38,471 nt of DNA, from the UHGV virus genome UHGV-0091782, one strand, 5' to 3'. The position numbers and the translations under genes were made by a program. Positions 24,845-28,277 of this stretch are shown here, one piece after another. The stretch is from a virus. Within the stretch, counting starts at the first letter, position 1; every line of letters starts with the position of its first letter. The notes under the pieces were generated by a model. That model had not been told where the DNA came from. It did no database searches and saw only the letters and a program-made list of their open reading frames with translations.

Positions 24845-25048
24845 TCATTCTTCCTTTTTAATAATGACTTCTCGAGGGCGCAATTGTTGGATAGCACGAC
24901 AAATACAATATGGAATAACTGCCCATGCTACTCCCATTGCTGCACCTGCAGCCTGTTGTGGAGCACTCTGAGCACCGAAAACCCCGAGGATTCCTTCAAT
25001 AAATCCAATAGCACTACACAAAAGACTGATGACCCAGAGAATTTTCAT
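24845..25048 (-). CDS. Small membrane protein (67 aa, 2 predicted TM), probable moron downstream of the lysis cassette
   Basis: ATG with AGGAG 9 nt upstream; hydrophobic segments. Confidence 0.45.
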   Translation of the reverse strand: MKILWVISLLCSAIGFIEGILGVFGAQSAPQQAAGAAMGVAWAVIPYCICRAIQQLRPREVIIKKEE

Positions 25049-25578: not shown

Positions 25579-26022
25579 CTAATATGAACACTGTGATCTC
25601 ACATACTCTTGCAGGCTATTCAATTGGTTAGTTATGGTTTCGATGCGCTCTCTGAGAACGAAATAATCCCGTTGAGCGGTGTCAGTAAGTCTGGGGCTGG
25701 AAGCATCATCCACGCCGGAGGCGGCGGTGGTTTTATGCATGTCCGGACAGACTGCTTTGACGTGCAGCCACTTACGACCAGCAGAAACATCAGCACGAAG
25801 ACTTTCGATAGTCGCGTTAGCATCAGCAAGCTCCTTTGTATATCTGGCATCGAGTTCAGCTACATTACTTTGACGTTTCTGCATGTCAGCGATAATGGAT
25901 GCGGCCTTATCGCGCTGCTTTTTGTAGGTGATGGCGTTATCACGGTAATGATTAACCGCCCATGACAGGCAGACGATGATGCAGATAACCAGAACGGAGA
26001 TAATCGCGGTGACTCTGCTCAT
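25579..26022 (-). CDS. Rz: Rz-like i-spanin
   Basis: [34 protein letters not shown]... closely resembles lambda Rz as I recall it. Confidence 0.85.
25632..25823 (-). CDS. Rz1: Rz1-like o-spanin lipoprotein embedded in the +1 frame of Rz
   Basis: ORF 25632..25850 contains ...[13 protein letters not shown]...[24 protein letters not shown], i.e. lipobox plus proline-rich core as in lambda Rz1; start chosen at the Met at 25823. Confidence 0.75.
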
Positions 26023-26495
26023 ACCTCAATCTCTCTGACCGTTCCGCCCGCTTCTTTGAATTTTGCAATCAGGCTGTCAGTCTTATGCTCGAACTGACCA
26101 TAACCAGCGCCAGGCAATGAGGCCCAGATATTGCTGCAACGGTCGATTGCCTGACGGATGTCACCGCGATCAATCATTAGTAAAGCGCCACGCTCCTTAA
26201 TCTGCTGCAATGCAACAGCATCCTGGCTTTTAGGAGAGAAGTCTGTCAGCCCTAACTGCTTGCGGTAAGCATCCCACCAGCGTGAAAGAAGTTGATAACG
26301 GCCTGCGGCTGTTGATTTGAGTTTCGGGTTTAGCGTGACAAGTTTTCGAGGGTGATCGGAGTAATCAGTGAAGAGTTCGCCACCGACAATAACGTCATAA
26401 CCGTGGTTACGTGTCGGTTGTCGCCCGTTATCCGTTCCTTCTGACCAGGCCACCATATCAAGGAAAGCTTTACGCTGAGGATTTAGTACCTGCAT
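26019..26495 (-). CDS. R: Endolysin, lambda R-like lytic transglycosylase
   Basis: ...[77 protein letters not shown]... near-identical to lambda R as I recall it. Confidence 0.9.
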
Positions 26496-26498
26496 AAA

Positions 26499-26834
26499 TT
26501 ACTCCTTCGAGCTACCAAATTTGTTACCGATTACTCGCATTGCAGCCCCACGAATAGCATCGACACCGATCAGCCCAACGCCGCCACCAATGGCAACAGA
26601 AAGAGATTTAGGCCATCCGACATACTCAAGAGCGGATGCAAAAGTCAGCGTCAGAGCACCACAGAGCAAAATCTCGAGCGTTTTTCGCTTCCAGCCACCA
26701 CCACCGCCAAAATAGGCAATGCGCAAGCCAGCCATAACGATCGACATAATCACTGCGCCCAGCGGTGTGTCTCCACGCCACCAGCTCTGAAACAACTCCA
26801 GCCAGTCCGGCCAGGTATTTGGGTTATGAGGCAT
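26499..26834 (-). CDS. S: Holin (lambda S-like, 3 TM)
   Basis: Immediately upstream of the endolysin; pattern ...MAGLRIAYFGGGGGWKRKTLEILLCGAL... parallels lambda S ...[26 protein letters not shown]... Confidence 0.65.
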   Translation of the reverse strand: MPHNPNTWPDWLELFQSWWRGDTPLGAVIMSIVMAGLRIAYFGGGGGWKRKTLEILLCGALTLTFASALEYVGWPKSLSVAIGGGVGLIGVDAIRGAAMRVIGNKFGSSKE

Positions 26835-26985
26835 TTGTAGTTATCTCTCACCTCGCTGATACAGCAGGTGCAAATTGAGGAAACATCATGTTCCGCAAAT
26901 CAGAAGCGGAAACGTCAAAGAAGCCGAGTCAAAGGATAACTGCGGGATAAACCAAGCCCAACGAACAACCAGGCCCAGAAACGAC

Positions 26986-27008
26986 AAAACCCGCTCATCG
27001 GCGGGTTT
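26986..27008 (-). terminator. tR'-like intrinsic terminator upstream of the lysis cassette (8-bp stem aaacccgc/gcgggttt, 6-nt loop, U-rich tail on the minus strand)
   Basis: Plus-strand aaacccgctcatcggcgggttt; the minus strand continues TGTCGTTTCT. Confidence 0.5.
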
Positions 27009-27100
27009 AAGCTGTGTGGCGAAGTAACCACTCTTAACACATTACATGATAAAATGCGGACCGCGTTAGTAATATTTTTCTCATATATTGGGTTCACTAC

Positions 27101-27847
27101 ATGCGACATAATTTTTCTAAAGACACTATAAAAAAATTAGCAGAGCGGGCAGCATTCATTTGTTCAAACCCTTCATGCCCTAGATTGACCATTGGCCCAT
27201 CAATTGATGGCAATAAATCAATCAAGACAGGAGTTGCTGCTCACATATGTGCAGCATCTCCTGATGGCCCACGCTATGACATGTCACAATCAGAAACAGA
27301 AAGGAAGTCAATTAACAATGGCATATGGCTGTGTGCTACTTGTTCTGTATTAATAGATAAGAATCAGGGGCTAGACTATCCGGCACCTGTATTAAGAAAA
27401 TGGAAAAAAGATCATGAAAGCCTTATAAGCTCCTGTCTTGAAGGTTCGATTAATATTACCTTCGATGCTTTGAAATATATTCAACAGCATGATGAAAGAA
27501 ATCTGGCAAAAAAGATTATAAATGAATTGGATGATAAAGGGGCTTTGTTCGTAGAATATCATCTTGAAAACCCCTGTTTTGTTGCCGAATCACTCAAAGA
27601 GTTAAGAACCTGTTTGACCTCTTTGCTTTCTCAAATCCCAGATGAATCACCTCTATTTATCGTTTGCAAGTCAATTCGAGAAGCATGCCGTTATTATATG
27701 AACAACACTTCTAAAGACGCAGGGATTAAAGAGTTAGAATTTTCGTTGGGAGCTGTCAGAAAAATCGTAGGTATCAACGTTAAAAGAATATCAGAAACCT
27801 ACGGGGTTAAACCTAGCCCACAATTATCTACCATAATGCCAGATTAA
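27101..27847 (+). CDS. AT-rich moron: HNH-like (beta-beta-alpha-metal finger) nuclease-domain protein, 248 aa; candidate defence or exclusion effector
   Basis: N-terminal CSNPSCP...GVAAHICAASPDGPRYD...NNGIWLCATC arrangement (Cys pair, His, Asn, second Cys pair) resembles HNH nucleases lacking the last His; opposite strand to all flanking phage genes; own terminator. Confidence 0.5.
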   Translation: MRHNFSKDTIKKLAERAAFICSNPSCPRLTIGPSIDGNKSIKTGVAAHICAASPDGPRYDMSQSETERKSINNGIWLCATCSVLIDKNQGLDYPAPVLRKWKKDHESLISSCLEGSINITFDALKYIQQHDERNLAKKIINELDDKGALFVEYHLENPCFVAESLKELRTCLTSLLSQIPDESPLFIVCKSIREACRYYMNNTSKDAGIKELEFSLGAVRKIVGINVKRISETYGVKPSPQLSTIMPD

Positions 27848-27856
27848 ATCTGTTAC

Positions 27857-27887
27857 GCAGCAACAAAGTTAAACTCTATGTTGCTGC
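27857..27887 (+). terminator. Hairpin (gcagcaac/gttgctgc, 15-nt loop) followed by T-rich tail; terminator of the moron, convergent with Q
   Basis: Read in sequence between the moron stop (27845-47) and the Q stop (27898-900). Confidence 0.45.
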
Positions 27888-27897
27888 CTTAATTTTA

Positions 27898-28260
27898 TTA
27901 CTCCATTTCTAAACGAATATCCAGCATCGAGAGACAACCATCTATAAACCCTTCAGCCAACTGTATCTCTATACGTATCAATTTCTCATCTTTTTTGTAT
28001 GCTTTTGCTATCTTCCTTTTCGAGATGCCATACAGGTAATGAGCCACAATCAGAGAGTGCTCATATGGTTTTCTCTTCTTAAGAAGAGCAAGACAACCTT
28101 CAATAATTAATGCATCACTATCTGAACAAGCCTGACGTGTTTTGCTTGTATAGGGAAGAAGCCCTTTAAACCCAGCAGCTATAGGAGAATAGTCTACTCC
28201 AGAACTATCACTCGCCGCCCATGCTCCCCAACGATCCAGAACCATCTGAATATCACGCAT
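27898..28260 (-). CDS. Late-gene antiterminator Q (QuuD / phage 82 Q-like)
   Basis: MRDIQMVLDRWGAWAASDSSGVDYSPIAAGFKGL... matches my recollection of E. coli QuuD; start at ATG 28260 with GGAG upstream. Confidence 0.8.
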   Translation of the reverse strand: MRDIQMVLDRWGAWAASDSSGVDYSPIAAGFKGLLPYTSKTRQACSDSDALIIEGCLALLKKRKPYEHSLIVAHYLYGISKRKIAKAYKKDEKLIRIEIQLAEGFIDGCLSMLDIRLEME

Positions 28261-28277
28261 CAACTTTCTCCACAAAA

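Follow-up and report, generated by a model that had tools for sequence, protein, structure and literature searches.

A Two-Domain Gene Next to the Antiterminator Gene of a Lambdoid Prophage

The 38,471-nucleotide stretch of DNA analyzed here (UHGV virus genome UHGV-0091782; herein the window) is a lambdoid prophage of Escherichia coli, inserted next to tRNA-Thr and proA, and its positions 26835 through 27900 are 100% identical to the E. coli chromosome NZ_CP031215.1. Between the genes for the antiterminator Q and the holin S lies a plus-strand open reading frame (ORF) of 248 amino acids (aa), which we call HNH-DUF6650 after the two domains assigned below. An initial annotation, made from the sequence alone, had described the ORF as an AT-rich interruption of a late region otherwise read from the minus strand. 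Both ORF prediction and the Prokaryotic Genome Annotation Pipeline (PGAP) annotation of NZ_CP031215.1 agree with this description: it is the sole plus-strand gene from the tail genes to the immunity region, and its GC content is 0.378, against 0.556 in the structural region (window positions 7000 through 25000). Q itself is AT-rich too (0.41).

The ORF is followed by a hairpin (27857 through 27887) with a ΔG of −15.2 kcal/mol and a z-score of −4.36; 0 of 200 shuffled sequences folded equally well. Since a U-rich tail (CUUAAUUUUAUU) follows the hairpin on the plus strand only, we read it as the ORF's own terminator, convergent with Q, as had been proposed; a simple terminator scanner missed it because its loop exceeds 8 nt. 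The alleles at 60 and 56% aa identity have hairpins and T-runs at the equivalent position. A scan of positions 26400 through 28400 against Rfam gave no match.

The N Terminus Resembles the HNH Nucleases of Defense Effectors

An alignment of 50 homologs, 41 to 95% identical to the window protein, was used to build an AlphaFold2 model (pLDDT 88.6; pTM 0.86), in which a ββα HNH domain (residues ∼1 through 114) precedes an all-helical C-terminal domain (∼121 through 243). The zinc site (C21/C26/C78/C81) and the catalytic residues H48, N73, and N88, with D86, are invariant in these homologs; together with R58 they form the invariant or near-invariant core of the alignment, and the HNH motifs quoted in the initial annotation belong to this core. 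The N-terminal helix (residues 7 through 17) is also conserved, with R16 invariant and A14, E15, and A17 near-invariant. In the HNH nucleases of Cap5 and SPARHA this helix mediates dimerization, and the formation of tetramers or filaments gives rise to an indiscriminate DNase (PMC12738770).

Comparisons with defense hidden Markov models, with structures, and with PDB sequences all bear out the proposed HNH domain. The best PADLOC match is to PDC-M68A (E = 7.5e-27); the CBASS "Effector endonuclease" (4.8e-21), SAVED-HNH (4e-19), and the N terminus of the Shedu model (4.7e-8) also match, all three within residues 1 to ∼115. The best structural match in a fold search is the Cap5 HNH domain, with ScoMcrA and EcoKMcrA far weaker, and the best PDB sequence match is the SPARHA HNH-APAZ effector (PDB: 9om4; E = 1e-13, residues 9 through 121). 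Viral HNH and homing proteins gave marginal matches only (E ≥ 0.17). For the whole protein, local Pfam models returned HNH_2 at an E value of 0.086 and no DUF6650, and NCBIfam returned nothing relevant. On these comparisons, the N terminus is assigned to the defense-effector (Cap5/SPARHA) class of HNH nuclease and not to the homing or packaging HNH proteins. Proteins that share this HNH domain but differ in their C termini are annotated as "lysogenic conversion protein" in P2-EC46 and in a Yersinia P2-like phage.

The C Terminus Is Assigned to the DUF6650 Family

The initial annotation had left the C-terminal ∼130 residues without a function; profile–profile comparison assigns them to DUF6650 (PF20355). 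A search found 335 homologs of the window protein and, among the matches listed, 120 of 120 carry PF20355 (precomputed, PF20355.5), most full length; the PGAP name of the family is also DUF6650. Our local Pfam scan missed the domain in the window protein because its model was an older version (PF20355.3), which places the homologs below threshold (E = 7e-4 to 0.08). For this reason the assignment was tested independently, through homologs and by profile–profile alignment. A word-indexed search with a profile of the C-terminal domain found the same family only. An exhaustive search of 1.84 billion representatives with that profile recovered 1155 proteins at E ≤ 1e-3, 467 of them at E ≤ 1e-10. 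The best 150 of the 1155 comprise 108 standalone proteins (≤200 aa), 29 HNH fusions, and 13 proteins with other N termini (a few with transmembrane [TM] helices). The standalone proteins pass the gathering score of PF20355.3 (53 to 61 bits), and hhalign aligns the window C-terminal domain with 40 of them at a probability of 99.95% (E = 1.3e-37) over 130 columns. The shared motifs are LED.G.L, E.P..V..S..EIR..LT, ACR, LG.LR, and a terminal P. By these profile criteria, the window C-terminal domain is solidly placed in core DUF6650.

Within the domain E156, S164, R169, L216, R220, and K221 are invariant, and C196, R197, N201, and P247 are near-invariant; E156, S164, R169, C196-R197, and R220 are common to the window domain and the standalone proteins. 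A PDB fold search with the domain returned generic helical bundles only and no specific relative, and a BFVD search gave nothing significant.

Two further arrangements of DUF6650 came to light. P0260, a 437-aa representative from the exhaustive search, joins HNH and DUF6650 to a C-terminal HATPase_c domain (GHKL ATPase), which hints that DUF6650 can couple to further regulatory modules. Elsewhere, a standalone DUF6650 gene is preceded by a codirectional gene (L093: 2 through 886, plus strand) with a PD-(D/E)XK-like "D...EAK" motif and a weak match to a Type IV restriction enzyme, which suggests that two-gene nuclease and DUF6650 systems exist beside the fused form.

The Fusion Is Widespread and Has No Recurrent Partner

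The fusion is found full length (∼246 to 263 aa, 41 to 95% identity) in Enterobacterales, Burkholderiales, Xanthomonadales, Bacteroidota, Cyanobacteria, Acidobacteriota, and Clostridia. In a search of 27 loci for partner genes, nothing but the fusion gene recurred. Neither a TIR protein nor a cyclase was present among 97 ORFs flanking 26 homologs; as a positive control for the TIR search, the ThsB_TIR model recognized a genuine type-VI-like TIR at 57 bits. In the prophage itself, the PGAP annotation likewise shows no TIR and no cyclase. The flanks of the 26 homologs include integrases, transposases, AbiV, SocA, a MazG C-terminal domain, and Uma2, and the Sodalis copy is within an IS110/ArdC/CbtA island. 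The fusion is present in ∼17 viral contigs of IMG/VR. In one P2-like phage (L112) a 55% identical homolog lies antisense between the tail-fiber assembly gene and the sheath and tube genes, a position that we take to be the variable Z/fun locus of P2. That locus has been mentioned as a diversity hotspot (10.1101/2021.01.21.427644). Judged by gene context, this habit is that of a self-contained, horizontally mobile defense gene.

The Q Junction as a Site of Accessory Cargo

Among 5426 complete E. coli genomes the ORF is present in 40 (∼0.7%), as this allele in 25 and as an allele ∼70% identical at the nucleotide level in 15. Relatives with flanks 93 to 95% identical have other Q alleles and other cargo at the junction, and in phages with a related Q the same place is occupied by unrelated plus-strand genes that converge on Q. 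The cargo at the junction includes a 339-aa ORF (L097), a pair of 313 and 149 aa (L098), a 308-aa ORF in mEp460 (L001), and, in Stx2a_1447 (L101), a two-gene operon with a first ORF of 343 aa; PADLOC matched none of the junction cargo genes tested. Gene content thus marks HNH-DUF6650 as accessory cargo and not as the conserved core late protein of this phage family that the initial annotation had named as the alternative, and the stretch from the Q stop codon to the noncoding block described below may be an unnamed hotspot for defense genes or other cargo in lambdoid and Shiga toxin (Stx) prophages.

The association with Q is an old one. The order block–ORF–Q–DUF968 is kept in four diverged alleles (100, 83, 60, and 56% aa identity), viral contigs included. 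Identities for Q, the ORF, and the DUF968 protein are 79, 59, and 68% aa against another E. coli prophage (L004) and 71, 55, and 59% against a Buttiauxella prophage (L012). Since the divergence of the ORF is paralleled by that of Q and DUF968, we regard the ORF as an old companion of the Q module that is swapped together with Q, and not as a recent insertion. The DUF968 protein, encoded upstream of Q (28278 through 29273, minus strand), has a C-terminal HNHc_6-like region that resembles a RecA-dependent nuclease (E = 1e-5) and is annotated in some phage records as a second "antitermination protein Q".

A Conserved Noncoding Block Probably Separates the Gene from the Late Operon

Upstream of the ORF lies a noncoding block (Table 1) that is near-identical among alleles with coding DNA just ∼69% identical and carries AAGCTGTGTGGCGAAGTAACCACTCTTAACA...TGCGGACCGCG. 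On the late strand a conserved AAGCTGTGTGGCGAAGTAACCACTCTTAACAC is followed by a variable segment of ∼12 nt and then by a palindrome-containing TGCGGACCGCGTTAG and a T-run; the block also holds a conserved 32-mer, and its conserved segment TGCGGACCGCG contains a palindrome. A strong intrinsic terminator of the late strand is formed by a hairpin (27008→26987) and the UUUUGUCGUUU that follows it. The block was found in 361 phage records, many of them of Stx-converting phages, and in phage 1720a-02 it directly abuts the Q stop codon, with no cargo between. A candidate −35 (TTACTA) and −10 (TATCAT, 27051→27046) stand on either side of the block palindrome; in lambda-type pR' promoters the Q-binding element sits between the −35 and the −10 (a general statement in PMC6266700).

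We infer that the block is the late promoter region, pR'/qut with tR'. On this reading the ORF is flanked by Q and pR' and excluded from the late operon, and late transcripts probably do not cross it. The initial annotation had placed the gene between Q and the lysis cassette, at the cargo site known from stx genes. The flanking genes, Q and holin S, are as described and the accessory nature of the cargo stands, but the gene probably belongs outside the late operon, with the Q stop codon on one side and the block on the other. It also differs from cargo of the stx type, which lies downstream of pR' and is transcribed together with the late genes: it is encoded on the opposite strand and lies to the Q side of the terminator-containing block, the putative pR'. 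The only plus-strand promoter candidate between 26835 and 27110 is TGATAAAAT, which we offer with low confidence as an extended −10 of the ORF.

Table 1. Positions of the HNH-DUF6650 gene, its domains, and adjacent features in the window
Feature	Position	Strand	Remarks
HNH-DUF6650 gene	27101–27847	+	ORF, 248 aa, ATG start; coding sequence WP_001406331.1 in NZ_CP031215.1
Predicted Cap5/SPARHA-type HNH nuclease domain (aa 1–114)	27101–27442	+	N-terminal helix (aa 7–17), zinc site, catalytic residues
Predicted DUF6650 domain (aa ∼121–248)	27461–27844	+	All-helical bundle; PF20355
Intrinsic terminator of the HNH-DUF6650 ORF	27857–27887	+	Hairpin and U-rich tail; convergent with Q
Conserved noncoding block	26986–27079	−	94 nt; upstream of the HNH-DUF6650 ORF; putative pR'/qut and tR'
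Candidate extended −10, TGATAAAAT	27047–27055	+	Possible promoter element of the HNH-DUF6650 ORF; falls within the variable part of the block and over the candidate minus-strand pR' −10
Antiterminator Q	27898–28275	−	PF06530 (Pfam E = 6.6e-52); long-term companion of the HNH-DUF6650 ORF
Holin S	26499–26834	−	PF05106
Endolysin R	26019–26495	−	
Rz	25579–26022	−	

Other Accessory Genes of the Window

A DUF6979 gene (25166 through 25591, minus strand; Pfam E = 1e-27; phrog_5039, unknown function) separates Rz from the packaging HNH and terminase genes, and a membrane-like 67-aa ORF at 24845 through 25048 is, like it, accessory in the lysis–packaging gap. At the left end of the window, beyond the tail genes, an AT-rich islet (GC 0.31 to 0.45; 1039 through 1971 and 2757 through 3740, both minus strand) contains an integrase remnant, the HEPN-domain protein WP_042058399.1, and a 327-aa hypothetical protein by tRNA-Pro (4039 through 4120); it could be another small defense islet. 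An acyltransferase-family gene (5039 through 6064, plus strand), on the opposite strand just past the tail-fiber assembly gene (6106 through 6501), looks like the classic O-antigen-modifying type of lysogenic conversion gene.

Comparison with Known Defense Systems

Known and candidate systems resemble the window protein in part. Cap5, the HNH-SAVED effector of the cyclic oligonucleotide-based antiphage signaling system (CBASS; PDB: 7rwk, 8fmf, 9dih), has the same class of HNH domain in a protein of ∼370 aa, whereas the window protein has a helical DUF6650 domain where Cap5 has SAVED. No CD-NTase or other signal-making gene adjoins the window gene, and with no cyclase in the prophage or in the flanks in the 26 genomes it does not qualify as a CBASS member. 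The closest solved sequence relative of the window HNH domain, the SPARHA HNH-APAZ protein (9om4; PMC12738770), is a nonspecific DNase that acts through sensor-driven oligomerization; its regulator is APAZ with a short Argonaute that senses invader DNA by means of a guide RNA, whereas that of the window protein would be the fused DUF6650. The match to PDC-M68A, an unvalidated PADLOC candidate (Payne et al.), pairs residues 1 through 130 with positions 1 through 130 of a 253-position profile; since the C-terminal half of that model is unmatched, PDC-M68A represents a different fusion.

DUF6650 was tied to immunity only in 2025–26, through ThsG and DS-27. Type VI Thoeris consists of a TIR protein (ThsB) and the DUF6650 effector ThsG; the TIR protein produces 2'-cyclic ADP-ribose (2'cADPR) upon infection, and 2'cADPR in the medium arrests cells that carry the system (bioRxiv 10.64898/2025.12.03.692087, a preprint of December 2025). 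An AlphaFold 3 model of ThsG is a hexameric ring with basic pockets between the protomers, and the authors describe the mode of toxicity of the TM-less ThsG proteins as unclear (bioRxiv 10.64898/2025.12.03.692087). The system is present in E. coli strains S1 and ACN001 and functional in MG1655, but it is rare (255 operons reported). ThsG and the window protein share membership in PF20355. Published ThsG proteins are DUF6650 alone or TM plus DUF6650, always beside a TIR; the window protein has an HNH domain instead, and the absence of a TIR from the prophage and from the 97 ORFs at its homologs sets it apart from type VI Thoeris as defined.

The DefensePredictor study (Science 2026, PMC13092281) newly implicates DUF6650 in defense through DS-27, an E. 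coli system validated in E. coli. DS-27 is a single 299-aa protein with an N-terminal SMEK_N domain (PD-(D/E)XK class) and a C-terminal "DUF6650" (HHpred 0.88), which in its authors' description has the same logic as the window protein: one gene, a nuclease at the N terminus, and DUF6650 at the C terminus. The nuclease superfamilies differ, SMEK_N (confirmed here) in DS-27 and HNH in the window protein, and since no similarity is detectable between the C-terminal regions, the likeness is architectural, with homology not established. In the table of that study WP_001406331.1 carries the label "predicted novel defense gene"; its mean log-odds, 8.58, exceeds the stringent threshold of 4, and the protein was not among the units that were cloned (PMC13092281).

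For a direct comparison with type VI Thoeris, proteins in the ThsG position were recovered through the published type VI TIR sequences. One operon, on a Listeria plasmid (L152), encodes a TIR 57% identical to the validated ThsB of E. coli S1 (ThsB_TIR, 57 bits) and a 262-aa protein in the ThsG position; for a TIR cluster in Aureispira (L153), the ThsG-position comparison gave a probability below 1%. The E. coli plasmid NZ_CP019257.1 (L151) contains at 814 through 1702 a decayed type VI Thoeris-like operon, whose TIR gene is split into two ORFs (1086 through 1364 and 1397 through 1702) and whose upstream effector gene retains an open frame over its final 90 codons alone.

Discussion

The reading that we favor, and consider moderately likely, is that HNH-DUF6650 is a prophage accessory gene (moron) encoding a one-protein antiphage system, probably an abortive-infection nuclease. 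In solved relatives of the Cap5/SPARHA class the HNH domain is inactive as a monomer or dimer, and tetramers or higher oligomers forced by a partner cut DNA nonspecifically. By analogy, the fused DUF6650 domain would be the regulatory partner that forces HNH oligomerization. In a lysogen the gene, lying outside the late operon, would be expressed from a promoter of its own; an infection cue, perhaps a small nucleotide signal, perhaps a component of the phage, would act on DUF6650; a change in oligomeric state would then switch on the HNH domains, and DNA would be degraded, with loss of the superinfecting phage and probably also of the cell. The initial annotation had listed defense among the candidate functions, and it is the reading that best accommodates the domain identities, the conserved catalytic and pocket residues, the occurrence without partners, and the association with mobile elements and cargo loci; DefensePredictor arrived at the same protein independently.

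Several observations weigh against this reading. The defense role is a prediction, and the overall validation rate of DefensePredictor is 45%. One E. coli copy of the gene is truncated and one viral copy is frameshifted, and a scan for consensus promoters found none convincing for the ORF. DS-27 has no detectable similarity to the window C-terminal domain or to core DUF6650 profiles, and hmmscan finds SMEK_N only. The Listeria ThsG-position protein aligns with core DUF6650 at a probability of 1.6% and with the window family at 0.3%, and PF20355.3 missed it. Seven neighborhoods of core DUF6650 proteins of the standalone or TM type contain no recognizable TIR, and their neighbors are mutually unrelated. 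Because core DUF6650 contexts are of this kind, the link to 2'cADPR comes down to shared Pfam membership. We therefore treat the Thoeris connection, as far as profiles can tell, as common family membership short of demonstrated equivalence, with homology to the validated ThsG unconfirmed.

A special case of the favored reading would make the protein an orphan Thoeris-type effector, that is, a receptor for 2'cADPR or another cADPR isomer that lacks a cognate TIR, eavesdrops on the signal that a type VI TIR of the host or of a co-resident element makes in trans, and adds a DNase arm to the response. DUF6650 is the family of the 2'cADPR-responsive ThsG, R169, R197, R220, and K221, all basic and conserved, would suit a pocket for a nucleotide, type VI Thoeris occurs and works in E. 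coli, and the layout parallels that of Cap5, in which HNH is joined to the ligand-binding SAVED. We nonetheless find this version unlikely. The prophage and the 26 genomes offer no adjoining TIR, core DUF6650 proteins mostly lack TIR neighbors, the direct comparison with the ThsG-position protein failed, and because type VI Thoeris is so rare, most hosts would lack the 2'cADPR signal. The C-terminal domain might instead read DNA directly, which would make the protein a solitary restriction-type or modification-dependent HNH endonuclease (Type II/IV-like). The structural matches to ScoMcrA and EcoKMcrA point that way but fall far below the match to Cap5; the C-terminal domain is DUF6650 and not SRA, EVE, or the N terminus of McrA, and no methyltransferase is conserved as a partner, so we hold this account to be improbable.

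Phages do encode sponges for cADPR isomers (Tad1 and Tad2), and a phage-borne DUF6650 could serve the phage in the same manner, as an antidefense sponge, or the nuclease could act in lytic growth, for example by degrading host DNA. However, a sponge would have no need of HNH catalytic and zinc residues, which are invariant; most family members reside in bacterial chromosomes and islands; the gene is antisense to the late operon and outside it, with its own terminator; and DefensePredictor scores the protein as defensive. There is only a slim chance that the gene serves the phage in either way. Slimmer still is the chance that it is a selfish homing endonuclease, a mobile HNH gene that inserted itself beside Q and is maintained through cleavage of unoccupied sites, of no use to host or phage. 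HNH enzymes are common as homing endonucleases of phages, and an AT-rich gene in antisense orientation suits that account, yet the matches to viral and homing HNH proteins are marginal, the two-domain protein occurs full length at unrelated sites in the chromosomes of many phyla, its codivergence with Q and DUF968 speaks against recent spread, and relatives have unrelated, non-HNH cargo at the same junction. Both homing and the sponge are a poor fit to the data.

Both domains, the design that combines a nuclease with a sensor, and the protein itself, as a machine-learning prediction in a supplementary table, were known already. The specific HNH-DUF6650 fusion appears not to have been described: our literature search found no paper on it or on PDC-M68, and the family proves to be large and widespread. 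Such a widespread and conserved fusion to an HNH DNase of a well-understood class, activated by oligomerization, suggests that DUF6650 is a regulator or sensor. A broader and more tentative proposal, which we regard as possible, is that DUF6650, instead of being toxic by itself, is a general and portable sensor and oligomerization module that can be wired to different killing domains, a TM helix in ThsG and HNH in the window protein; the prophage gene would then be a self-contained, TIR-less member that senses 2'cADPR, a related nucleotide, or a phage product and responds with Cap5-like DNA destruction.

If this broader proposal is correct, HNH-DUF6650 would be the first immune protein to arm DUF6650 with a nuclease, and it would provide a handle on how TM-less DUF6650 proteins act, the question left by the authors of the Thoeris work, with DNA cleavage as a biochemically tractable readout for the DUF6650 ligand. 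In addition, lambdoid and Stx prophages would have a previously unnamed defense hotspot where the Q stop codon meets the pR' block.

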